From NCBI GenBank assembly GCA_963779425.1, contig CAVZYD010000006.1, forward strand, positions 586,704 to 650,703: a stretch of 64,000 nt of DNA, given 5' to 3'. The notes beneath the pieces are model-generated. The model was not told the DNA's origin. It did not search any database and saw only the letters and a program-made list of their open reading frames with translations. Shown piece by piece: positions 1,138 to 35,166 of this stretch. This DNA comes from an uncultured Acidimicrobiaceae bacterium. Lineage in GTDB: Bacteria > Actinomycetota > Acidimicrobiia > Acidimicrobiales > Bog-793. Each line of letters begins with the position of its first letter. The first letter of the stretch is position 1. The position numbers and the translations under genes are program-made.

Positions 1138-4100
1138 GCCGAAGCGAGATGAGTCCGCCACCGCTGTCGGCCCTGCCGGGCCTGCTCGCCGGTGAGGCCG
1201 TCATCGCCGAGCTCCTCGGTGTCGACGACGCCGTCGTCGCTGTCCCGGACGCGGCGCGCACGGTCGTGCTCGCCGCGCTCGCCGAGCTGAGCACGGCACC
1301 CACGGTCCTCGTCGCAACGGCGACGGCCCGCGAGGCCGAGCAGCTCGCACACGACCTCGGGCCCTTCCTCGGTCCCGACTCGGTCGAGCTGCTGCCGGCA
1401 TGGGAGACGCTCCCGTTCGAGCGGGTGTCGCCCGCGACCGAGACGATGGGCCGCCGGCTTCGCACGATGTGGCGTCTACGCCACAAGGCAGCGGAGGGTT
1501 CGTCTCCCGGAGCGGAGGCGGAGGGCGCCCCGTGCGTCGTCGTCGCCCCGATCCGGGCCCTTTTGCAGCGGCTCGGCGCCGAGGGTTGAAGACACCGAAC
1601 CCGTCGTCGTCCGCCGGGGCAGCGAGCTCGACCCGTCCGCAGCTCGTGGCGCGCCTCGTGCATGCCGGCTACCGCCGCGAGTACCAGGTCGAAGCCCGCG
1701 GCGAGCTGGCGGTCCGGGGCGGCATCGTCGACGTCTTCGGCTCGACGGCCGACCACCCCGATCCGCATCGACCTGTTCGGCGACGAGGTCGAGCGCCTGA
1801 CGGCTTTCGAGGTTGCGAGCCAGCGCTCGGTCAGCGATCTCGACCAGGTCGAGCTCTTCGGCTGTCGCGAGCTCGTGCTCACCGAGGACGTGCATCGAGC
1901 GCGCCCGGGCCCTGTCCCGGTCAGCGCCCTTCGCCCAGGACAATTTCGCCAGGATCGCGGAAGGGGAGCTGTTCGACGGCATGGAGTCCTGGCTGCCGTG
2001 GCTCAGTGCCAGCGAACGCCTCTTCACCGACCTGTTGGACGAGCGCTCCCGCGTCGTGCTCGTCGAGCCCCGGCGGCTTCGCGACCGGGCGGCGGAGATC
2101 CTGGACGAGGAGGTGGCCCTGAGCGAGAGCCTGGCGACGACCTGGGGGCTCGAAGAGGTCGACGCGGCGGCTGCGATGCCGCGCCTGCACCTCGGCTTCG
2201 ACCGTCTCTTGCAGCACAGCTCGGCCAAGGTGGCCTCGCTGCTGCCGGTCGCCGAGAGCAGCCGCGCACGGTGGCCTTGCAGGCCTCTGGCTGGCCACCG
2301 GTGCTGGGCGACTCCGCCGTCCTCGCCCGCCGATTCGCCGAGCTCGCCAGCTCGGGCCACCGGGTCGTGATCTGCGCTGACGGCCGGGGCAGTGCCGAGC
2401 GCATGGCGGCGGTGCTCGACGGCGAGGGCCTGGCCTGCGATTTGCTCGTCGACGAGGCTTCCGAGACGGTCGATACCTCCATCCGCCGGCCGGGTGTCCA
2501 CATCGTCGTCGCTGCCTTGGACCGCGGCGGTCTCATCTCGAGCTCGAAGCTCGCCATCGTCGCCGAGCCGGACGTGACCGGACGGCGGCGGCCGCACCGC
2601 CAGGCGCGACCGCGACCGCGTGCCACCGAAGGCTTCTTCGACGACCTGGCGCCGGGCGACTACGTCGTCCACAACGTGCACGGCGTCGCCCGCTTCGCCG
2701 GCATGGTGACCCGCTCCATGGGCGGCGCCGAGCGCGACTACCTGCAGCTCGAGTACCGGGGCGGCGACAGGCTGTACCTGCCCTCTGAACAGATCGACGC
2801 CCTCACGCCCTACACAGGGGGCGAGTCGCCCGCCCTCAACCGCATGGGTGGCGCCGAGTGGTCACGCCAAAAGGCCCGCGTGCGGGCCGCCGTGCGCGAG
2901 GTGGCAAAGGAGCTGGTCGAGCTCTACCGGCGGCGCCACACCACCCCCGGACACGCCTTCGCCCCCGACACGCCCTGGCAGGCAGAGCTCGAGCAGGCCT
3001 TTCCCTACCCCGAGACCCCGGACCAGCTGAAGGCGGTCGAAGACGTCAAGGCGGACATGGAACGGCCCGTGCCGATGGACCGCCTCGTTTGCGGCGACGT
3101 CGGCTTCGGCAAGACCGAGGTGGCCGTGCGCGCCGTGTTCAAGGCGGTGCAGGACGGTTACCAGGCCGCCATCCTCGTCCCGACGACGCTGCTCGCCCAG
3201 CAGCACTTCCAGACGTTCTCCGAGCGCTACGCCCCCTACCCGCTGCGCGTTGAGGTGCTTTCGCGATTCCTCACGGTCGCAGAGGCGCGAAAGGTCGTCG
3301 ACGGGTTGGCGGACGGGTCGGTCGATGTCGTGATCGGCACCCACCGACTCCTCACACCCGACGTGAGGTTCAAAAAGCTGGGTCTCCTCGTCGTCGACGA
3401 GGAGCAGCGTTTCGGCGTCTCCCACAAGGAGGCCATAAAGCAGCTGACCATCGGCGTCGACGTGATCACCTTGACGGCAAGTCCTATCCCGCGCACGCTC
3501 GAGATGAGCCTTACGGGCATCCGCGACCTCTCGCTCATAACGACGCCGCCGTCGGAGCGCCAGCCGATCCTCACCTATGTCGGCGAGCACGACGAGCGCG
3601 CCGTGGCCGAGGCGCTGCGGCGCGAGCTGTTGCGGGAGGGCCAGATCTTCTACGTCCACAACCGCGTGCACGACATCGAGCGCGTCGCCGCCGAGCTGCG
3701 CAGCCTCGTGCCTGACGCCCGCGTGGCCGTCGCGCACGGCCAGATGGACGAGGGCACCCTCGAACAGGTCGTGCTGGACTTCTGGGCGGGCGCCTACGAC
3801 GTGCTCGTGTGCACGACGATCATCGAGTCCGGTATCGACATGCCCTCTGTCAACACCCTCGTGGTGGACCGGGCCGACCGTCTCGGACTAGGCCAGCTCC
3901 ACCAGCTGCGGGGCAGGGTCGGGCGTGCGGGGAGGCGTGCCTACGCCTACTTGTTGTTCCCTCCCGACCGCGTCCTGTCAGAGCAGGCCTACGAGCGCCT
4001 GCGGACCATCGGCGAGCACACCGAGCTCGGATCGGGCTTCAAGATCGCCATGCGCGACCTCGAGATCCGCGGGGCAGGCAACCTGCTCGGCAGGGACCAG

Positions 4101-5857: not shown

Positions 5858-9322
<3,465 letters not shown>

Positions 9323-9394: not shown

Positions 9395-10592
9395 GTGGCT
9401 GTAGCCTCGGCGCTAGGTGGTGGAGGTGACGGATCTGTGAAAGAGGTGATCGCGGACATCGACCGGTGGCAGGCCGCGGGACGCCGCGTCGCCATCGCCC
9501 GGGTGATCGGCGTCGAGGGCTCCGGGCCGAGGGACCCCGGGGCGGCCATGGCCGTCAGTGAGGACGGGGAGGTCGCCGGCTCGGTCTCCGGGGGCTGCGT
9601 GGAGGGCGCCGTCGTCAGCGAGGCCCTGGCCGTGCTCGAGGACGGCCGGGCGAGGCTGTGCACCTTCGGTTACTCCGACGACGATGCCTTCGCCGTCGGG
9701 CTGACCTGTGGTGGCACCTTGCACCTGCTGGTGGAACCGCTCGACTGGTGAGGAAAGGACCGGCTCTTGGGCGGTGAGCTTTACCGCGAGCTGCGGTCCT
9801 CCCTGCTCTTGGACGAGCCTGTCGCCCTCGCGACGGTCACCGCCGTGCAAGGTGAGGCCGAAGGCCACACCGAACTCGCCGCCAAGGTCCTGGTCTGGCC
9901 CGACGGCCGCAGCCTCGGCAGCCTCGGCGACCCGGAGCTGGACCGGATCGCGAAACGCGACGCTCTCGCCGCCCTCGAGCGCGGCTTGACGGTCACGCGC
10001 CACTACGGTCCCTGCGGCGAGGCGCGCCGCGGACGAGGTCGCAGTGTTCTTGGAGGTCTTCGCTCCCGCAGCCCGCCTCATCGTCTTCGGTGCCGTCGAC
10101 TTCACGAGGGCGCTCGTAGGGGTGGGAAAGGTGCTCGGCTTCGCGGTCACGGTCTGCGACGCCCGCCCGGTGTTCGCCACGAGAGCCCGCTTTCCCCTCG
10201 CCGACGAGATCGCCGTCGAGTGGCCAGACCGGTATCTCGAGCGGGTCGGACCCGAGCTCGGGCCTCGGGACGCCATTTGCGTGCTCACCCACGACACCAA
10301 ATTCGACGTGCCGGCGATACTGGGCGCGCTGCGCACCCGGGTCGGCTATCTCGGCGCCATGGGTTCGCGGCGGACGCATGAGAAGAGGTGGGAGCGCCTC
10401 TTGGAGGCCGGCGCCGACGAGGCGGAGCTCCGAGAGCGGCTGATGAGCCCGATCGGCCTCGACATCGGTGCCCGCACACCGGAAGAAACAGCCGTGGCGA
10501 TCTTTGCGGAGATGATCGCCACGCGCACGGGGCGGGCGGAAGGAGTCGTCTCCTCGCTTCGGACAGAGACGGGACCGATCCACCGCAGCTGA
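9395..10592 (+). pseudogene. XdhC/CoxI-family molybdoenzyme maturation protein, interrupted by an in-frame TGA (9749-9751) and a frameshift near 10028
   Basis: Segment 1 (frame 2) reads RVAIARVIGVEGSGPRDPGAAMAVSEDGEVAGSVSGGCVEGAV...GLTCGGTLHLLVEPLDW then TGA. The same frame continues GKDRLLGGELYRELRSSLLLDEPVALATVTAVQGEA...GSLGDPELDRIA, a second XdhC_CoxI-like segment. It then shifts to frame 3 for DEVAVFLEVFAPAARLIVFGAVDFTRALVGVGKVLGFAVTVCDARP...GAMGSRRTHEKR...SPIGLDIGARTPEETAVAIFAEMIA, the XdhC_C Rossmann-like domain. Confidence 0.75.
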
Positions 10593-10690
10593 GCGCGAGC
10601 GGCCAAGTGGTACCGCCGGCCAGTTACCCTGTTCGCCATGACCGGGGCCGTGCGCTGAGCTCAGGGCACGGGACGAACCGAGCGAGCCAG

Positions 10691-12989
10691 ATGTCCTTGT
10701 TGGGTTGGCTCCGCTCGCGCGACCGCGACCTCGCGGCCCTTCGACGCGCCGGGCGGGCGGCGATCGTCATGCCGGCCCTGTTCGCCTTCACCGACAAGGT
10801 CCTAGCCAATCCGGCCATGGCGAGCTTCGCCGCTCTTGGCTCGTTCGCCATGCTCTTGCTGGTCGATTTCGCCGGCCCGATGCGTCTGCGGCTGGAGAAC
10901 CAAGTTGCCCTGGCCGTTGTCAGCGGCGCCCTTGTCTGTCTCGGGACGCTGGCGTCGCACGCCGCCTGGCTCGCCGCGGTGGCGATGGCCCTCGTCGCCT
11001 TCTCGGTGCTGTTCATGAGCGTCGTGAGCTCGGTGCTGGCCTCGGCGACGACCGCGTTGCTGTTGGCTTTCATCCTGGCGGTCTCGCTCCGGGCACCGAC
11101 CTCGTCGATCCCCGACCGGCTCGCCGGCTGGGAGATGGCAGCAGCGGCTGCGCTTTTCGCCATCAAGGTGTTCTGGCCGGCGCCCGAGCGCATCGCGTTG
11201 CGCGAACCGGTCGTCGTGGCATGCCGCGCCCTGGCGGCACGACTGCGTTCCGATGCAGCCTATCTGCTCGGCGGCGAGCACCAGCCTTCCGAGGCCGAAC
11301 ACGAGGAGGCGATCGCGCAGGCGAGAGCTTCGATCGGGGCTCTACGCCGCAGCTTTTACGCCACGGCGTACCGTCCCACCGGCCTCAGCACCGGAGCCAG
11401 GGCGATCGTGCGCCTGGTGGACGAGATGAGCTGGCTCGAGGCGATCATCGCCGTCTCGGCCCCCCAACCACCAGGGCTGCCGGTCAATGTCGGTGCCTGC
11501 CAGGTGAAGCTGGCGGCCGCTTCGGTCCTCGAACTGGGCGCGGACGTCCTCGAAAGACCGGCCGCGACGGCCGATGACCTCCGCCGGTCGGTTGCGGAGC
11601 TTCGCCAAAGGCTAGAGGAAGTGGAAAAGAGGGCGACGGTGGACCTCGAGGTCGGGCGGGCGCCGGCAACCCGCGATCTTGCAAACGAAGACAGGGTCAC
11701 CGAGCTCGTCACCTCGCTCGACCCCGAGTTTTCGCTCCCAGGAGCTGAGCTTCGCCGTCTTGCAGATCGCCGCCAACATCGACCTCGCCGCCGCCGCGGA
11801 TAGACGGGGCTTTCTGGAGCGTCTGACCGGTCACCAGCCGGAGGGCCTCACGAACACCCTCGCCGCCGCACAAGAGCGCGCCGTCTCCCACTTCGAGCGG
11901 CACTCGGTCACGCTGCACAACGCTGTCCGTGGAGCGGCCGGCCTCGGCCTCGCCGTCCTCGTCGCCGACCTCACAGGCGTACAGCACTCTTTCTGGGTCG
12001 TGCTCGGCACGTTGTCGGTCCTGCGTTCCAACGCCCTCAGCACGGGCCAGAACGTGCTTACGGGGCCTGGCCGGCACCGTGGCCGGGTTCATCATCGGCG
12101 CCGGTCGCGCTCGCCCTCATCGGGACGAACACGGTGCTCTTGTGGCTGTTGCTTCCCCTCTCCATCCTGCTCGCCGGCATCGCGCCGGCCGCCATCTCCT
12201 TTGCCGCCGGCCAGGCGGGCTTCACCGTGGTGCTGGTGATCCTGTTCAACATCATCCAACCCCTCGGATGGCGTGTCGGGCTCTACCGCGTCGAGGACGT
12301 CGCCATCGGCTGTGCGGTGAGCCTCGTCGTCGGAGTGCTGTTCTGGCCGAGGGGCGCCGCCGCCGCTTTGCGCCAGGCTCTGGGCGAGGCCTACGCCGAC
12401 AGTGCTCGCTACCTGGCCGGTGCCGTCGAGTTCGGCATTGGACGGTGCGACACGAGCGTCCCGGCCAGGCACGCACCCATCGACGAGGCTGCCCGGGCCG
12501 CCGCCGCCGCCCGCCGGCTCGACGACACCTTCCGCGGCTACCTCGCCGAACGGGGCGCCAAACCCGTGCCCCTTTTCGAGGTGACCGGACTGATCACCGG
12601 CGTCGTCGGCCTGCGCCTCGCCGCGGATGCCGTGCTGGACCTGTGGCGGGGCGATGATTGCCAGTCGCCGGGCGAGCGGGCCGCTGCCCGCCGAGAGCTA
12701 CTGAAGGCCAGCGAGGCTGTGACCGCCTGGTACGAGGCCCTGGCTGCGGGCCTCGTCGAGGGGAGCGACGTCCCGGCCCCTCTCGGGTCGCGACGAGTCT
12801 TTCGATCAGCGGCTCGTGGACGCGGTGCGCCGCGACCTCACAAGCGACGACGGCACTGCCAGCGCCGCCGCCGTGCGCATCATCTGGACGGGCGATCACC
12901 TCGATGCCGCCAGGAGGCTGCAGGGCCTGATCTTCGAACGGGCCCGCGAGGTTGGCGAGCGGCGCAGCCTCGGTCCTGCCTTCCGATAG
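10691..12989 (+). pseudogene. FUSC-family (fusaric-acid-resistance-like / aromatic acid exporter-like) integral membrane protein, four frame changes as sequenced
   Basis: ATG 10691 in frame 2 gives MSLLGWLRSRDRDLAALRRAGRAAIVMPALFAF... with multiple TM helices. It shifts at the T-run ~11731 to frame 3 (RSQELSFAVLQIAANIDL...GLGLAVLVADLTGVQHSFWVVLGTLSVLRSNALSTGQNVL). It shifts at ~12059 to frame 1 (RGLAGTVAGFIIGAG), then at ~12103 to frame 2 (VALALIGTNTVLLWLLLPLSILLAG...VEDVAIGCAVSLVVGVLFWPRG). The last shift, at ~12783, goes to frame 3 (GRDESFDQRLVDAVRRDL...RIIWTGDHLDAARRLQ) ending TAG 12987-12989. Confidence 0.7.
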
Positions 12990-25285: not shown

Positions 25286-25359
25286 GGGGACGTAGCCCAA
25301 CAGGCAGAGGCAGGGCGCTTAAAACGCTCACAGTGAGGGTTCGAGCCCCTCCGTCCCCA
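25286..25359 (+). tRNA. tRNA with anticodon UAA (nominally Leu) on a class I (5-nt variable loop) body; CCA not encoded
   Basis: Hand-folded cloverleaf:
- acceptor GGGGACG / CGTCCCC (25286-92 / 25352-58), discriminator A
- D arm GCCC-AACAGGCAG-AGGC
- anticodon stem GGGCG / CGCTC with loop CTTAAAA (25318-24; anticodon TAA at 25320-22, U33 and A37 present)
- variable loop ACAGT
- T arm GAGGG-TTCGAGC-CCCTC. Confidence 0.8.
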
Positions 25360-25531
25360 CGGGACCGGCTCGCGGCCGCCTGAGCTCGAGGAGGGGTCGC
25401 GAAGCCGGCCGCCCCCGGCGGGCTCGGCTCGGCCCTCCTAAACGGGGCTGGCCTGGGCAAGTTCTTGGGCAAGCCTCAGGAGAAACACAGGAAGGCCCCT
25501 TATCCTTAGGCCGTCACTGCTGCCTAAAGGA

Positions 25532-30168: not shown

Positions 30169-30379
30169 GGCGCGATCTTTTCACCCGCGCAAGGGAGGGC
30201 TGAGGGACTCCGGTCGGCCAGCAGGCGAGGGTGTGTTTTCGACCCGCGTTCCACGCTGGTGACGCGTCAGGATTGCACAGACAATCGAGCCTGCGCCTAC
30301 GAAGATATTACCACTGACAGTAGTGTTACAAACGCGGTACGTGCTTAAGCCGAACCTCAAAACTGCCGACGTTCCTTAC

Positions 30380-30988
30380 ATGCGAGGGAACCAGAACTAC
30401 CGGCCAGCCAAGGCGTCAGGAACGAGATTCAAGGGTCGTTTCAAGGTTTTCGGAGGGCTCTTCCTAGTCGGCATTGCGGCCCTCCTGTTGGGCTCGTTGG
30501 CGTTCTCCCCGCTCGCCGGGGCCACACCGAGTCAAGGTGCGGCGACCACTTCAATTTCAGCGAGGGACGGCTCCACCCTGGCGTCCGTGGCGACCACGTG
30601 CAGCCGCCCGGATGCCAGGGTGGCGGGGGGCGTGATTCGCGTCGGCGTCTCGGCCGGCCCTTCTCTCAAGGTCTCACCGGCCTGGTGGCCTCACTGGGGC
30701 GTCCCCCCGCGTGTCAGCGAGGCCGTCAGCCTCAAGGTCTCACCGGCCTGGTGGCCTCACTGGGGCGTCCCCCCGCGTGTCAGCGAGGCCGTCAGCCTCA
30801 AGGTCTCACCGGCCTGGTGGCCTCACTGGGGCGTCCCCCCGCGTGTCAGCGAGGCCGTCAGCCTCAAGGTCTCACCGGCCTGGTGGCCTCACTGGGGCGT
30901 CCCCCCGCGTGTCAGCGAGGCCGTCAGCCTCAAGGTCTCACCGGCCTGGTGGCCTCACTGGGGCGTCCCCCCGCGCCTTAGTCGGTAG
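30380..30988 (+). CDS. putative secreted/membrane-anchored protein ending in 4.7 perfect Trp-rich 22-aa repeats (LKVSPAWWPHWGVPPRVSEAVS)
   Basis: From ATG 30380 (alternative start 30323): MRGNQNYRPAKASGTRFKGRFKVFGGLFLVGIAALLLGSLAFSPLAGA is a signal/TM-like segment. Of the three forward frames, all open across the repeat, this one has the highest third-position GC (19 of 22 codons per unit). No family is recognised, so coding status is uncertain. Confidence 0.45.
   Translation: MRGNQNYRPAKASGTRFKGRFKVFGGLFLVGIAALLLGSLAFSPLAGATPSQGAATTSISARDGSTLASVATTCSRPDARVAGGVIRVGVSAGPSLKVSPAWWPHWGVPPRVSEAVSLKVSPAWWPHWGVPPRVSEAVSLKVSPAWWPHWGVPPRVSEAVSLKVSPAWWPHWGVPPRVSEAVSLKVSPAWWPHWGVPPRLSR
30665..30975. 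repeat. perfect 66-bp tandem repeat, 4.7 copies
   Basis: The unit is ctcaaggtctcaccggcctggtggcctcactggggcgtccccccgcgtgtcagcgaggccgtcagc. It starts at 30665, 30731, 30797, 30863 and 30929, with no mismatch until 30975. A degenerate half-copy lies just upstream (about 30622-30664). Each unit contains the inverted repeat GGCCTCACTG...CAGCGAGGCC. Confidence 0.97.
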
Positions 30989-31893
30989 TCCCCCGGCTCC
31001 GGGGCCGAAGCAGAGTCGTCAGCCGCCATCTCGGGGGTCACCTCGGTGCCCTCCCCGCTGGAACTGAGCGGTTGGTCTGAGACCTCGGGTGCCAGCCAAG
31101 GATCGGTGATCCCGTCGTGGGCACGGCCACGGTCCCGCCACAGCAAGAAGCCGGCGAGGCCGACACCGACGGCCACGAAGGCGACGGAGGCGACGAGGAC
31201 GGCTTGGTCGCCACCTGTGTTATGGGGCAAGAGCACGTACTCGTCGTTGAAACGAAAGGCCCCGTAGAGCGTTACCGCTGATGTCGCCACGACGCCGATC
31301 GGACCGCCCCGCCGGGCAATCCGGCGTTCCACCCGCAATGCGACGAGGTACACGACAAGGTCTTCGAGCGCCTGAATTATCGGCACGGGCACCCGCTTTC
31401 CAACTTGACCGGCGTAGGCCATGCCGTACCAGGCGTGGGTGAGGTTGCCGCCACCTTGGTACATGAGCTGCGGGCCGAGAAGGCGACCTACGGCCCAGGC
31501 GATCACCAACACCGGAGCGACAAGGTCGAGTGCCACACTCAAGCGCAGCTGTGGACACCAGCGCCGGGCGCAGAGCAGTCCGGTCGGGACTCCGCCGAGC
31601 AGCCCTCCGAAGCTGGAGAGGCCCCCGTGCCAGATGGCCAGGATGTCTCCCGGATTCTGTGCGTAACCCTGGGCGCCCTTCAAGTTGGCGATGACGTGCA
31701 CGGCGCGGGCGCCAACCACAGACGCAATGACGATCCAGACGAAGGCGCGACCGAGCCAGGCATCGGGGTAGCCGTGGTCGCGCAGACGCTTCGCCAGGTA
31801 GCGGTAGCCGAACCAGAACGTGATCGCGAGCCCGATCCCGTAGGTGTGGATCTGGAGCGGCCCGATATGGAAGACGACGGGGATTGGCTTCAC
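30955..31893 (-). CDS. lgt: prolipoprotein diacylglyceryl transferase
   Basis: From GTG 31893, preceded by GGGAGAG: VKPIPVVFHIGPLQIHTYGIGLAITFWFGYRYL...GDILAIWHGGLSSFGGLLGG...GRLLGPQ...YGAFRFNDEY are Lgt family motifs. The ORF stays open upstream to 31998. The C-terminal tail and the stop (30955-30957) lie inside the last copy of the 66-bp repeat. Confidence 0.85.
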   Translation of the reverse strand: MKPIPVVFHIGPLQIHTYGIGLAITFWFGYRYLAKRLRDHGYPDAWLGRAFVWIVIASVVGARAVHVIANLKGAQGYAQNPGDILAIWHGGLSSFGGLLGGVPTGLLCARRWCPQLRLSVALDLVAPVLVIAWAVGRLLGPQLMYQGGGNLTHAWYGMAYAGQVGKRVPVPIIQALEDLVVYLVALRVERRIARRGGPIGVVATSAVTLYGAFRFNDEYVLLPHNTGGDQAVLVASVAFVAVGVGLAGFLLWRDRGRAHDGITDPWLAPEVSDQPLSSSGEGTEVTPEMAADDSASAPEPGDYRLRRGGTPQ

Positions 31894-31998
31894 TGCTCTC
31901 CCATGTTGGGGTAAACGGTACCGCCGCGCCGAGTACTCGCGGGCAGCGGCGCCGACGAGCGGCCCGTGACCGAAGGCTTGCCAAGCGCTCCTTGGCAA

Positions 31999-32746
31999 AG
32001 CTGCCCGGCTCCGGATCTGGGTCCGGTCTCCCCTCTACCGTGCCGATATCACTAAAGGTCGGGTACGGGGAACGAGAGCGAGGCTGACAACCGAGCGATG
32101 CCAGAGTCAGCGTGCGCCGACTGCCGGCGGGGCGTTGTCACAAGCTGGAAAGACGCGATCGACCCCGAAACGCGGAGGGACCCCGGGTAGCCGGTCAGCT
32201 TGCGCCTCCGTACTTCCCGGGGTCATCCCCTGGGCGGCTCGCCCTCCTGTCAGACAACCGGGAACCTTGCGGCCCTGCCGGCGACTGAGCCTTCTCGCTT
32301 ACCCCGAGAGGCAAGCGTTTGGGGCGGAGGTCCGTCCACCTCTCCTCTGTCGTTCCAATCGCACACCGCACGCTCCGGACTCCCCTGCGGGCTTCCCTCG
32401 CCTTTGGCGATTGACTGGATCGCTTTCGGTTGATTGGCAGCTTGCTCCCATTGCCGCAATGCGTCAACCCGTTTTTGCGAAATCCACCGTGAGTTCACAG
32501 AACTTCTGGCTTTTCCCCCTTCCGTCCCCAGATCTATCCCAGGCTCATCCACAGAGGAGGGGATATCGCCGGCCCTCGGGAGCCCATTTCCGGTGTCCAC
32601 CGAGGCACGCCTGGGGCTCGCCATTTCCTTTCTCAGGGCGGTCTCTCGGAGCCGAAAGTCTTGGCGGCTCGTCGACCCCTCGGTAAGGTCAAAGGCCGCG
32701 GCTCGTCGAACAGGGCGAACGCCACGAGCCAGGGAGGGATACCAAG
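31999..32746. other. ~750-bp region without a credible CDS, hairpin-rich; unassigned structured RNA(s) and/or leader of bioY
   Basis: The only ORFs here (32135..32686 +, 32250..32870 -) translate to low-complexity Arg/Pro/Ser-rich sequence with no recognisable domain. Many strong local stems are visible, for example CCCGGGGTCATCCCCTGGG, GGCTCGCCC...GGCGACTGAGCC, CGCTTACCCCGAGAGGCAAGCG and GGAGGTCCGTCCACCTCT. A Shine-Dalgarno GGGAGGGA precedes bioY ATG 32747. Confidence 0.5.
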
Positions 32747-33331
32747 ATGTCGGACGCTGTGACCCTGCGTCAGCCGGAGCCGGTTGTGTTCGGCGATCTC
32801 TTCGCCACGACGCGGGCACAAGACGTCGTGCTCGTGTTAGCCGCCGCGGCTCTTGTCGGAGCGCTGGCACAGGTCTCGTTCCACCTCTCCTTCACGCCCG
32901 TGCCCGTCACGGGACAGACGCTCGGTGTCCTCGTGGCCGGTACGGCGCTCGGCTGGAAGCGGGCCACGGCCGCCATGACGCTCTACGGCGTGGCCGGGAT
33001 CGCCGGGGTTCCCTGGTTCGCCGACCACGCGAGCGGGTACGTGGGGGCGAGCTTCGGTTACGTCGTGGGCTTCGTCTTCTGTGCAGCCTTGTGTGGCTTT
33101 CTCGCCGAGCGACGCGCCGACCGGTCGCTTTTGAGCTCGCTCCCGGTCATGGTGGCCGGCGAGCTCGTCCTCTACTCGGTTGGTGTTACCTGGCTCGCTC
33201 TCAGTTTGCATGTCGGTGCGCAGAAGGCGATCGCCCTTGGGCTCACGCCGTTCCTCGCCGGCGACGCCATCAAAGCGGCCATCGCCGCCGCCCTCTTGCC
33301 GGGGGCATGGAAGTTGTCGGGGCGCCGCTGA
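32747..33331 (+). CDS. bioY: biotin transporter BioY (ECF S-component)
   Basis: Intact 194-aa ORF. ...AQVSFHLSFTPVPVTGQTLGVLVAGTALGWKRATAAMTLYGVAGIAGVPWFA...GYVVGFVFCAALCGFLAER...GLTPFLAGDAIKAAIAAALLP is the BioY family signature. Confidence 0.85.
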   Translation: MSDAVTLRQPEPVVFGDLFATTRAQDVVLVLAAAALVGALAQVSFHLSFTPVPVTGQTLGVLVAGTALGWKRATAAMTLYGVAGIAGVPWFADHASGYVGASFGYVVGFVFCAALCGFLAERRADRSLLSSLPVMVAGELVLYSVGVTWLALSLHVGAQKAIALGLTPFLAGDAIKAAIAAALLPGAWKLSGRR

Positions 33332-33433
33332 ACAAGCCTTCGCGCCGGTTCGCGCCAGGGGCGTAGGGCGAGGGGCGATGCGCCAAACGCGGTGGTAGGG
33401 TCCGCTCGGCGGTCAGGCCTGGAGGCGCGATCG

Positions 33434-34351
33434 ATGAGTACTGACTGGGACGGACAGGGTCTTCCGCCCGCTGCTTTAGCCAGGATGGAACGAGGCCGCT
33501 CTTCGCCCGTCCGCAGCAGCCTGCTCTCGGTACCGGGCCACGTCGGCGTTGAGGCCTGCGGCTTCTCGGTCGTCGGTGAGGTGATGGGCTGCATCGTCGA
33601 GACCATCGGTTTCACTGGATGGGCGGGGTGCGGTTACGGCGGCTACGGACTGGCGGGCGGCGGGCTTTACCGCGGCTTTGGCGGAGTGAGCACAACGGTG
33701 ACGAGCGGCCAAGCGGGCGGATGGGTGGGCTATGCGCCCTATGTGGAGGCGCTCTATCGCGGCTTCGACACAGCTCTTTACCGCATGCTGTTGGAGTGCC
33801 AATCCCTCGGTGGCGACGGGGTGGTCGGCGTCCGACTTGAGCAGCGCCATCTTGGGCAGGGCAACCGCGAATTCGTCGCTCTCGGCACCGCCGTGCGCGC
33901 GGCGGGGGACCAAAGGCCGGCACGGTTGTTCTCGACGACCCTGAACGGCCAGGACTTCGCCAAGCTGCTCCAAGGTGGCTGGGTGCCGGCCTCGGTCGCC
34001 ATCGGCATTTCGGTAGCGATCCGCCATGACGACTGGGCGACAAGGAGCCAGGCGAGTGCCTGGGCCTACAACACCGAGGTTTCCGGCTACACCGAGCTGG
34101 TTAACCACGTAAGGGCCGACGCCAGGTCCCAACTCGCCCGCCGGGTGAGCGCCATAGGCGCCCACGGGGCGATCACGAGCTCCATGCAGCTCAGCATCCA
34201 CGCCCAAGAGGTGGGCGAGAACCACACCGACCACGTAGCCGAGTCCCGCCTCATCGGCGACGCGGTCGTCCGCTTTCACCCTGAAGGCACCACCCCGCCG
34301 AAAAGCCTCACGATCCTTCCGCTCTCGAACCCGAAAGGGAGTAAACGATGA
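33434..34351 (+). CDS. tandem-domain YbjQ/UPF0145 (DUF74, putative heavy-metal-binding) family protein
   Basis: From ATG 33434. There are two YbjQ-like halves: ...GFSVVGEVMGCIVE...AVEALYRGFDTALYRMLLECQSLGGDGVVGVRLEQRHLGQGNREFVALGTAVR, and ...GWVPASVAIGISVA...ELVNHVRADARSQLARRVSAIGAHGAITSSMQLSIH. The first half carries a Gly/Tyr-rich insert, GWAGCGYGGYGLAGGGLYRGFGG. Confidence 0.65.
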   Translation: MSTDWDGQGLPPAALARMERGRSSPVRSSLLSVPGHVGVEACGFSVVGEVMGCIVETIGFTGWAGCGYGGYGLAGGGLYRGFGGVSTTVTSGQAGGWVGYAPYVEALYRGFDTALYRMLLECQSLGGDGVVGVRLEQRHLGQGNREFVALGTAVRAAGDQRPARLFSTTLNGQDFAKLLQGGWVPASVAIGISVAIRHDDWATRSQASAWAYNTEVSGYTELVNHVRADARSQLARRVSAIGAHGAITSSMQLSIHAQEVGENHTDHVAESRLIGDAVVRFHPEGTTPPKSLTILPLSNPKGSKR

Positions 34352-35166
34352 CCATCGAAGCCAACGAGCTGGGGATCCCCCAAGATGCCATGCGGCGCCT
34401 GGCCGAGATGCGACCAGGCCAGCCGGGCGCGTTGTTCACCTCCGATCTGAGCGTGAACGAGTTTCTCCTCGTAAGGGAGGCGGGCTTCAGGCCCCTCGGC
34501 CTCGTGCTCGGCTCCAGCATCTACCACGTCGGCCTCCAGGTCGGCCGGTGGAGCCAGAACATGGAGCTCGACACCTTGTCCCAGGCCATGTACCACGCTC
34601 GTGAGCTGGCCATGACCCGTATGGAAGCCGAGGCCGACGCCCTCGGCGCGGACGGCATCGTCGGGGTCCGTCTCGACATCGAGTTCAAGGAGTTCGGTAA
34701 CGACCTTGCCGAGTTCATCGCCGTCGGCACCGCCGTCAAGTCCGACGACAAGGGCAACTGGCGCAACGACGAGAACAAGCCCTTCACCTCCGATCTGTCT
34801 GGTCAGGACTTCTGGACCCTCGTCCAGGCGGGCTACGCCCCCCTGGGCATGGTGATGGGCAGCTGCGTGTACCACATCGCCCATCAAGGCGCCTTGAAGG
34901 CCATGGGCAATGTCGGGCGCAACGTGGAGATACCCAAGTTCACCGAGGCTCTTTACGACGCCCGCGAGCTCGCCATGAGCCGCATGCAGGCCGAGGCCGA
35001 GCAGCTCAAGGCCGAGGGGATCGTTGGGGTGCAGCTGTTGTCGCTGGCGCACAGGTGGGGCGGGCACACGACCGAGTTTTTCGCCATCGGCACCGCCGTT
35101 CGGCCGCTGCGTGCTGACCACATCATCGCCAAGCCGCAGATGGTCCTCCCGCTGACCGACCGTTGA
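34348..35166 (+). CDS. tandem-domain YbjQ/UPF0145 (DUF74) family protein, paralogue of the upstream gene
   Basis: The ATG overlaps the upstream stop (ATGA). The two halves are GFRPLGLVLGSSIYHVG...AMYHARELAMTRMEAEADALGADGIVGVRLDIEFKEFGNDLAEFIAVGTAVK and GYAPLGMVMGSCVYHIA...ALYDARELAMSRMQAEAEQLKAEGIVGVQL...TEFFAIGTAVR. Confidence 0.7.
   Translation: MTIEANELGIPQDAMRRLAEMRPGQPGALFTSDLSVNEFLLVREAGFRPLGLVLGSSIYHVGLQVGRWSQNMELDTLSQAMYHARELAMTRMEAEADALGADGIVGVRLDIEFKEFGNDLAEFIAVGTAVKSDDKGNWRNDENKPFTSDLSGQDFWTLVQAGYAPLGMVMGSCVYHIAHQGALKAMGNVGRNVEIPKFTEALYDARELAMSRMQAEAEQLKAEGIVGVQLLSLAHRWGGHTTEFFAIGTAVRPLRADHIIAKPQMVLPLTDR

Follow-up and report, generated by a model that had tools for sequence, protein, structure and literature searches.

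The element described here, a conserved block of 386 nucleotides (nt) on the minus strand between lgt and bioY in a 64,000-nt stretch of DNA from an uncultured Acidimicrobiaceae bacterium (the whole stretch is referred to below as the window), has its closest described counterparts among the structured RNAs of bacteria. The promoters of rsmY and rsmZ, which encode sponge RNAs of the Csr/Rsm type, are preceded by a GacA upstream activating sequence; to our knowledge, Csr systems have not been established in Actinomycetota. Ms1 is ~300 nt long, has a conserved promoter, and, like 6S RNA, folds into a long, irregular hairpin whose large central bubble resembles an open promoter (PMC4191392); its gene is syntenic with genes for a HAD-IB hydrolase/phosphoserine phosphatase and an oxidoreductase (PMC9130861). 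The raiA motif RNA occurs in Acidimicrobiia between comFC and raiA and has a P1-P8 fold with two pseudoknots (PMC10861870).

Our reading of the block, to which we give a probability of roughly 0.6 as a whole, is that it contains the gene for a new family of stand-alone structured small RNA (sRNA) in Acidimicrobiales, with a predicted promoter of its own and possibly protein binding. By analogy, the Csr/Rsm sponge type (CsrB, RsmY, and RsmZ) appears to be the closest functional counterpart. Shared with it are a stand-alone sRNA gene, repeated hairpins whose copy number varies between lineages (1-2 versus 4-7), a stable 3' hairpin, and a predicted promoter preceded by a conserved upstream array, as in rsmY/Z. 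However, the loops here are GCAA/GAAA tetraloops and contain no GGA, with GG(G/A) found in the stem instead, and there is no sequence or covariance-model similarity. With the raiA motif, OLE, GOLLD, and ROOL, the RNA has in common a complex multihelix fold, many invariant nucleotides, GNRA tetraloops, and the character of a clade-restricted orphan RNA, probably transcribed independently. It differs from them in giving no covariance-model match and in its modular repeat expansion, which is not a feature of those classes, and from raiA also in its neighborhood, between a bio gene and lgt. The raiA motif was rejected as an identification, with no Rfam match at E ≤ 10 and neither comFC nor raiA nearby. 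The likeness to 6S and Ms1 lies in a length of a few hundred nucleotides, likely abundance, a probable stand-alone gene, a conserved, predicted sigma-A-like promoter, and ends that a closing helix would join.

A conserved block and its minus-strand fold

In high-G+C DNA, lgt (minus strand, 30955-31893, with a GTG start at 31893; PF01790) and bioY (plus strand, from 32747; PF02632) are separated from start to start by an intergenic interval of 853 nt. A search with the Lgt protein in a one-genome-per-species collection gave 72 lgt loci, the closest of which come from metagenome-assembled genomes (MAGs) labelled Acidimicrobiales/Acidimicrobiaceae. When the gap was compared with these loci by blastn, a single sharply bounded match of ~385 nt was returned at 16 of them, with 82-90% identity, and the rest of the gap was unmatched. 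The edges of the alignment are knife-sharp, running from CTGTGGAYGA to CCGCGTC (window 32554 down to 32169), and the flanks cannot be aligned. In the same genomes, identity is 82-90% for the block, 75-83% for the lgt coding sequence (CDS), and 73-80% for the bioY CDS, and the two spacers are unalignable, which makes the block the most constrained sequence at the locus. The 386-nt block is under stronger constraint than the neighboring genes. The block and the sequences beside it are as follows.

32169-32554, minus strand, 386 nt: whole conserved block (repeat array, predicted promoter, and predicted RNA gene), from CTGTGGATGA... to ...CCCTCCGCGTT, delimited by blastn and MAFFT against 16 lgt loci
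31894-32168, no strand assigned: nonconserved spacer from the RNA 3' end to the lgt start codon; relatives are similar only over ~39 nt beside the lgt start
32555-32746, no strand assigned: nonconserved spacer from the block to the bioY start codon; no similarity in relatives

Further copies were collected by using an invariant 25-nt motif near the 3' end as a search pattern, which matched 63 metagenome contigs and one site in the window. The RNA element was found at 20 of the 72 genome lgt loci. Divergent loci were sought with nhmmer profiles, in place of a full-length covariance model, and L023 and L025 were added in this way without the search pattern. The total is 86 loci including the window (20 from genomes, 63 metagenome contigs, and the 2 divergent loci found by nhmmer). 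Fifty copies are full length and of the window type, 39 of them distinct; contigs L097 and L115 are identical to the window. All labelled loci are Acidimicrobiales, Acidimicrobiaceae, or Actinomycetota, their sources being uncultured MAGs or metagenome contigs, and the RNA family appears, as far as sampled, to be restricted to uncultured Acidimicrobiales. An origin in a mobile element, plasmid, or phage was rejected: the plasmid collection gave no match to the region, no viral contig carries the exact 25-nt motif, the window has a single copy, and internal repeats are short, chance-like matches only.

The consensus fold, computed from the last 270 columns of the 39 distinct window-type sequences, has 75 pairs and is a multibranched set of six hairpins. 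Standard pairs fill 99.0% of the cells, versus 35-56% when the partners are slid by 1-3 columns, and two-sided changes occur at 8 pairs (53 cells), versus 0-4 pairs (0-12 cells) in the slid controls. None of 500 shuffles had a covariation score as high as that observed. G-U pairs make up 13.3% of the cells, which fixes the strand as minus; a plus-strand reading pairs only 86.0% of the cells. The minimum free energy (MFE) of the RNA body, folded as a single sequence, has a z-score of -2.55 on the minus strand versus -0.88 on the plus strand. The 3' 264 nt keeps a multihairpin fold by compensatory and G-U-tolerant changes, on the minus strand only. That the locus holds a conserved structured RNA element on this strand is, in our judgment, close to secure. 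The parts of the RNA are listed below in the 5' to 3' direction.

~32169-32432, minus strand: predicted RNA of ~264 nt; 5' end placed from the predicted promoter (within a few nucleotides), 3' end from the point where conservation stops
32352-32421, minus strand: H1, a long hairpin with purine-rich internal loops and a CCC-GCAG-GGG cap (helices 2-5); the same module type is repeated in the long form
32326-32345, minus strand: H2, the almost invariant hairpin GGAGAGGUGGACGGACCUCC (helix 6); it hardly varies in the 39 sequences, so covariation is uninformative
32297-32316, minus strand: H3, the hairpin GCUUGCCUCUCGGGGUAAGC (helix 8), which was quoted in the initial annotation
32251-32287, minus strand: H4, CAGUCG-CCGG-CA-GGGCC-GCAA-GGUUC-CCGG-UUGUCUG, with a GNRA loop (helix 9); common to all three architectures
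32232-32244, minus strand: H5, the short, nearly invariant hairpin GGGCGAGCCGCCC (helix 10)
32174-32230, minus strand: H6, the 3'-terminal G+C-rich hairpin GACCCCGGG/CCCGGGGUC around a GGC-GCAA-GCU hairpin, with the lower extension GGGG/CCUC (helix 11)
32169-32173, minus strand: 3' tail GCGUU, which is GCGUC in nearly all relatives; conservation stops here

Covariation is spread over several of these hairpins. In H1, pair 146-210 is GC in 24 sequences and AU in 14, and pair 158-198 is AU in 19, CG in 8, GU in 3, and UG in 3. In H3, pair 255-266 is GU in 18, GC in 14, and AU in 7, and pair 253-268 has changed on both sides. In H4, pair 279-318 is UA in 29 and CG in 10, and pair 285-312 is GC in 16, AU in 10, and GU in 8; homologous hairpins are present in the long type and in L023. 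Across types, a base pair of H6 that is A-U in the window type is G-C in the others (L023 and L025 have GGUCCCGGG/CCCGGGACC), and its lower helix covaries (GGGG/CCUC, GGGAG/UUUCC, GGCAU/GUGCC, and GGAGAG/CUCUCC).

The tail also offers an additional pairing. The anti-Shine-Dalgarno-like CCUCCG pairs with a Shine-Dalgarno-like loop, CGGAGG, as an H-type pseudoknot (-10.9 kcal/mol in the window), or alternatively with the purine flank 5' of the terminal stem as a stem extension that covaries across types. Across types, changes in the tail are matched by changes in both partners, and both pairings are feasible, which hints at two alternative conformations.

The initial annotation, made from the letters of the window, had described the interval between lgt and bioY as stem rich and had favored the minus strand. 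The strand was right, and the hairpin that it quoted, CTTCTCGCTTACCCCGAGAGGCAAGCG, is real, being H3 (32316-32297), kept with compensatory changes. Stem richness holds only for the minus-strand RNA body (z, -2.55); over the whole gap, MFE z-scores against dinucleotide shuffles are -1.2 (minus) and -1.9 (plus) and cannot be separated from the shuffles, which suggests that at the scale of the gap the richness in stems is mostly an effect of base composition. The ends proposed for the RNA, 32529 and 32146, were off by 25-100 nt, the block being 32554-32169 and the likely transcript ~32432-32169. Among the identities considered at that time was a different structured RNA with no known family, and this is the one that covariation, conservation, and the lack of an Rfam match support. 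The covariation analysis with homologous loci that had been suggested is the one that yielded the 8 compensatory pairs (53 cells), and the suggested Rfam search of the region named no known family. In the whole window, Rfam 15 at gathering thresholds recognized only a tRNA at 25286-25359. At E ≤ 10, positions 31800-32900 gave only chance-level hits to eukaryotic microRNA/long noncoding RNA models and to one sRNA model. There was likewise no Rfam match for ten relatives or for the two other architectures.

Three architectures were distinguished, with RNAs of ~260 to 550 nt overall: the window type (block of 384-387 nt), a long type (block of ~585 nt or more and predicted RNA of 394-550 nt), and the L023/L025 type (~270 nt). 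All three have the upstream region, the promoter-like hexamers, H4, and the terminal hairpin in common. The long type contains 4-7 tandem copies of a hairpin module of ~45-50 nt, with two outliers that have 2 and 0. The module is a GCAA/GAAA-capped CCC/GGG stem plus a stem with a purine-purine mismatch and is flanked by purine-rich internal loops; its consensus is ..GGGAAGG-NNNN-CCGCAAGG-GAGG..GGAAC.., and its stems covary. The window type has one clear module (H1) and 1-2 such hairpins in all. The long-type fold (9 sequences) has 135 pairs, 22 of them with compensatory changes, and is a closed multidomain fold in which GGACG at the predicted transcript 5' end and CGUCC at the extreme 3' end form the closing helix (pairs 8-12 with 509-513). 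At L018, the 3' tail of the element is tandemly duplicated, with CCCGGGGCCCTTCCGCGTC twice in succession at ~3626-3672.

Predicted promoter and upstream repeat array

Toward its 5' end, the block contains a promoter-like pair of hexamers and an array of short repeats, neither of which had been recognized in the initial annotation. Majority fractions and invariant columns in the list below are those of the window type.

32545-32553, minus strand: upstream repeat 1, TGTGGATGA, invariant at the 5' edge of the block in all three architectures
32522-32530, minus strand: upstream repeat 2, TGGGGACGG, 23 bp from repeat 1, kept as TGGGGAY in all types
32491-32499, minus strand: upstream repeat 3, TGTGAACTC, 31 bp from repeat 2, TGTCGAYAA in the long type
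32480-32488, minus strand: upstream repeat 4, GGTGGATTT, 11 bp from repeat 3 and 21 bp from the -35 hexamer
32462-32467, minus strand: predicted -35 hexamer TTGACG (TTGACG in 44/49 and TTGACC in 5/49 distinct upstream variants); majority fraction 0.996, 5/6 columns invariant
32445-32461, minus strand: promoter spacer of 17 nt, variable in sequence (17 nt in 45/49 and 18 nt in 4/49 variants), for which RNAalifold predicts no pairs; majority fraction 0.62, 0/17 columns invariant
32439-32444, minus strand: predicted -10 hexamer CAAGCT, invariant in the window type, with only A2 and T6 matching TATAAT; majority fraction 1.00, 6/6 columns invariant

The next 7 nt, the putative discriminator, has a majority fraction of 0.69 and 0/7 invariant columns, and the RNA body has a majority fraction of 0.93 with 155/271 invariant columns. 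This alternation is as expected for a -35 hexamer, spacer, -10 hexamer, discriminator, and transcript, and it places the start near 32432. The -35 hexamer matches a TTGACA-like consensus at 5/6 positions. Over all types, the 49 distinct upstream variants without exception read TTGACS, 17-18 nt, and then NANNNT, although the promoter search itself required A2 and T6 of the -10 hexamer, so that the retention of these two positions is not independent evidence. The -10 hexamers found are CAAGCT, CAGAGT, CAAAGT, CAGGAT, CAAGAT, AAGAGT, and CAGTCT, with CAGTAT in L023. Taken together, these comparisons make an internal promoter and a 264-nt transcript likely.

The four 9-mers of the window have one orientation, with spacings of 23, 31, and 11 bp and then 21 bp to the -35 hexamer. 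In the long-type locus L101, the corresponding boxes (TGTGGACGA, TGGGGACGA, TGTCGACAA, and TGTCGATAA) are spaced by 12, 31, and 21 bp and then 32 bp to the -35 hexamer. These distances (11, 12, 21, 23, 31, and 32 bp) are near whole helical turns, which points to a property of DNA. High-affinity DnaA box consensus sequences are TTATCCACA and TTGTCCACA (PMC4285127, Table 1). The reverse complement of repeat 1, TCATCCACA, has one mismatch to TTATCCACA, and the repeat reverse complements TCRTCCACA, TTGTCGACA, and TTATCGACA have at most one mismatch to TTATCCACA/TTGTCCACA. The long type has 2-3 boxes with at most one mismatch, which share one orientation and, relative to the -35 hexamer, lie at -32, -53, and -96. 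Such boxes are found, all in one orientation, at 14.7 per kb in the upstream block versus 0.12 per kb in 230 kb of flanking sequence, a 125-fold enrichment; the copies are homologous and not independent. The DnaA box is the best match for the 9-mers in the literature, and an OmpR-family response regulator, binding 11-bp-phased direct repeats, would be an equally mechanical alternative.

Two other roles for the array were rejected. An origin of replication (oriC) is contradicted by the absence of a dnaA/dnaN gene and of a GC-skew switch nearby, and a BioQ/BirA operator for bioY by the fact that the array stays with the RNA gene where bioY is absent (the long type, whose upstream gene encodes a nitroreductase). 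The window type has a conserved GATCT/AGATCT between boxes 1 and 2 (AGATCT at 32531-32536). AGATCT is an alternative 6-mer recognized by DnaA, known so far only in Escherichia coli (PMC4285127), and the identity is probably a coincidence.

Alternative readings of the locus

The alternative that survives best, which we nevertheless consider unlikely, takes the entire 386-nt block (32554-32169) as one RNA, with an unconserved promoter further upstream, RNA structure in the 5' 120 nt, and ends held together by UGUGGAYG/CGUYNRNG pairing. The conserved block starts and ends exactly at complementary motifs. RNAalifold, run on 39 sequences, pairs columns 7-14 with 397-404 (the first 8 nt with the last 8) and columns 30-37 with 303-310 (CUGGGGAY with GUUCCCGG), and the pairing between the 5' and 3' parts of the block is present in 97.8% of the cells versus 33-54% in slid controls; the transcript may thus be longer. 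However, changes in the two long-range helices are confined to one side (Y facing an invariant G), GUUCCCGG fits better into H4, a local hairpin that covaries, and the long-range GACGC/GCGUC pairing breaks where TTGACG is replaced by TTGACC. The variable stretches of 17 and 7 nt are fixed in length and have neither hairpin potential nor covariation, and the helical phasing of the 9-mers is a feature of DNA. GGACG is also found at the predicted transcript start, which would account for the complementarity, and it would be strange for so conserved an RNA to depend on a promoter with no conservation at all.

Less probable again is a functional analogue of 6S or Ms1, that is, an abundant RNA that binds RNA polymerase. 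The size of 260-500 nt and the conserved, predicted sigma-A-like promoter do resemble Ms1, and the methods of the Ms1 search in Actinobacteria do not mention Acidimicrobiia (no occurrence in PMC9130861). Yet the RNA here folds into a multibranched set of hairpins instead of a rod with a central bubble, Rfam gives no match to 6S (RF00013), and the synteny of Ms1 is absent, the neighbors being lgt, bioY, YbjQ-domain genes, and genes for nitroreductase, BioB, P450, thiolase, and GGDEF-EAL proteins.

Control of lgt or the downstream operon by a cis-acting 5' leader, either a riboswitch or an attenuator, would be in keeping with the position of the element, which is always upstream of lgt on the same strand, at 46 nt to ~4 kb (46-280 nt for the window type and within 4 kb for all types). 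The first downstream gene differs between loci, however, and may be lgt, a cytochrome P450 gene (PF00067), a thiolase gene (PF00108/PF02803), or a convergent gene, the last encoding a PAS-GGDEF-EAL, DMFA2-like, or thiolase-like protein. In L005-like loci, the convergent gene ends at a stop codon within the final 20 nt of the element. Conservation is absent from the spacer to lgt, and no terminator/antiterminator alternative with a U-tract was found. A leader in the direction of bioY would have to use the plus strand, which pairs only 86% of the cells versus 99% for the minus strand. The long regulatory leader considered in the initial annotation is accordingly very unlikely.

The neighborhood has several other features. 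In a subgroup of the window type, a convergent PAS-GGDEF-EAL gene (~770-850 amino acids [aa]) stands between the RNA gene and lgt, at L005, L009, L013, L020, L073, L106, L112, L127, and L128. In L005-like loci, its TAG stop lies within the conserved CTACCC of the terminal hairpin, in the last 20 nt of the element, so that the two transcription units would overlap tail to tail. On the other side, the upstream gene is bioY (divergent) in the window type and a nitroreductase gene preceded by bioB in the long type; at L086 and other long-type loci, genes for biotin synthase (Radical_SAM plus BATS) and nitroreductase lie 0.6-2.7 kb upstream. Biotin genes adjoin the RNA in both the window and long architectures with no evident regulatory link, and the order of bio gene, RNA, and lgt looks like inherited synteny rather than a regulatory link.

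A degraded, divergent, or misassembled transfer-messenger RNA (tmRNA; ssrA) had been suggested by the length of ~385 nt, a GGGGA start, and a GUCUGACAGG motif; it has practically no chance of being correct. The likeness comes down to the approximate size of the conserved block and its high G+C hairpin content, and the suggested resemblance found no support in the Rfam and ARAGORN tests. ARAGORN reported a tRNA-Leu only, with no tmRNA and no tag peptide, and RF00023 gave no match at gathering or at E ≤ 10. The block has no tRNA-like domain and no tag reading frame; its 3' end, ...CCCUCCGCGUU, has no T arm, and there is no acceptor/T-arm pairing or CCA-proximal end. The GGGGACG taken for the start of the RNA is located in upstream repeat 2, in the DNA array and not in the RNA. 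The sequence is under purifying selection in 86 loci, and an identity of 82-90% in dozens of independent genomes and contigs means neither decay of ssrA nor sequencing error. In the window form, AGUCCGG and CCGGCUA recall what we take to be the CR-I (AGUCCGG) and CR-V (CCGGCUUA) motifs of the E. coli M1 RNA. RNase P (RF00010/RF00011) was rejected, with no Rfam match and with the P4-like AGUCCGG/CCGGCU used in local hairpins and not kept in the long or L023 types.

Open reading frames (ORFs) of 77-206 aa cross the region, but a small protein gene, such as the 90-aa ORF at 32195-32467 (minus strand), can be dismissed with near certainty: third-position GC (GC3) periodicity is absent from the 853-nt gap and present in both flanking genes, close relatives differ by several single-nucleotide indels, which rules out a conserved reading frame, substitutions track base pairing and not codons, and the TTG "start" of the 90-aa ORF is the -35 hexamer. 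These ORFs are the usual artefacts of high G+C content, and the initial annotation was correct that the region contains no credible protein gene. Its statement that this is the longest such stretch in the window was not confirmed, since a rough map of the coding sequence shows further gaps of 0.8-1.0 kb (10590-11614, 7353-8200, and 30181-30957).

Elsewhere in the window, a tRNA-Leu gene (anticodon TAA, 25286-25360) is the sole RNA gene recognized by Rfam (hit at 25286-25359) and ARAGORN. A perfect tandem repeat of 66 bp in 4.7 copies (30665-30975, 100% matches, no indels) overlaps the last codons of lgt, at its 3' end. It falls within a 221-aa plus-strand ORF (30323-30988), where the repeated peptide would be ...SLKVSPAWWPHWGVPPRVSEAV..., and its perfect copies suggest either a very recent expansion or an assembly artefact. 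The plus strand continues after bioY with a pair of adjacent paralogs (33392-35166) that encode YbjQ_1 (putative heavy-metal-binding) domains.

Proposed mechanism and significance

The stand-alone sRNA that we propose would be transcribed on the minus strand, codirectionally with lgt. A primary-sigma-type promoter within the block (TTGACG, a variable spacer of 17 nt, and CAAGCT) would set the start near 32432. The weak -10 hexamer would be helped or controlled by a DNA-binding protein on 4-6 upstream 9-mers, which share one orientation and are helically phased, and the transcript would end at the G+C-rich terminal hairpin near 32169. The RNA would be built from the hairpin with a GNRA cap and purine-rich internal loops, of which the window form has one or two copies and relatives of 400-550 nt have 4-7. 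In the last and weakest step, the RNA may act in trans by sequestering or scaffolding a protein. Variation in the copy number of the module resembles that of protein-sponge RNAs; a protein-binding or sequestering mechanism remains tentative. A more specific version, in which DnaA on the phased boxes would control a large modular RNA whose purine-loop hairpins titrate or scaffold a cellular protein, is speculative and, on balance, improbable.

Several observations weigh against this proposal, in addition to the long-range pairing across the block noted above. The -10 hexamer matches TATAAT at only 2/6 positions, with C at position 1. A generic consensus promoter scan called no promoter, a terminator scan was also empty, and the promoter was recognized only via the comparative data; the weak -10 hexamer and the miss by the scanner suggest that the promoter probably needs an activator. 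There is no U-tract after the terminal hairpin. The 3' domain is largely invariant, and part of it was fixed by the search pattern, so that it gives little covariation information. Within the window, only box 1 (TCATCCACA) is within one mismatch of a DnaA box, the other three having 3 mismatches, and the consensus sequences used for the comparison with DnaA boxes come from other phyla. With no more than 1-2 modules in the window form, the analogy with sponges is weaker at this locus, and the genes beside the RNA include none for a candidate partner protein.

New classes of structured RNA that are several hundred nucleotides long and supported by covariation are rare in bacteria, and earlier cases (6S, OLE, raiA, and ROOL/GOLLD) each opened a line of biology. 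The family proposed here would belong to Acidimicrobiales, a clade with essentially no RNA biology. It offers testable features in a sharply defined gene with a recognizable predicted promoter, a helically phased upstream array of unusual conservation that would bind protein (possibly DnaA boxes), and a module whose copy number has grown from 1-2 to 4-7 between lineages. If control by DnaA were true, it would link the cell cycle or replication state to a sponge-type ribonucleoprotein in Acidimicrobiales, and the RNA would represent a new class of large (up to ~550 nt) bacterial noncoding RNA with lineage-specific module expansion. For annotation, the "empty" 850-nt gap beside lgt in these MAGs would be a gene, and neither junk nor a damaged ssrA.

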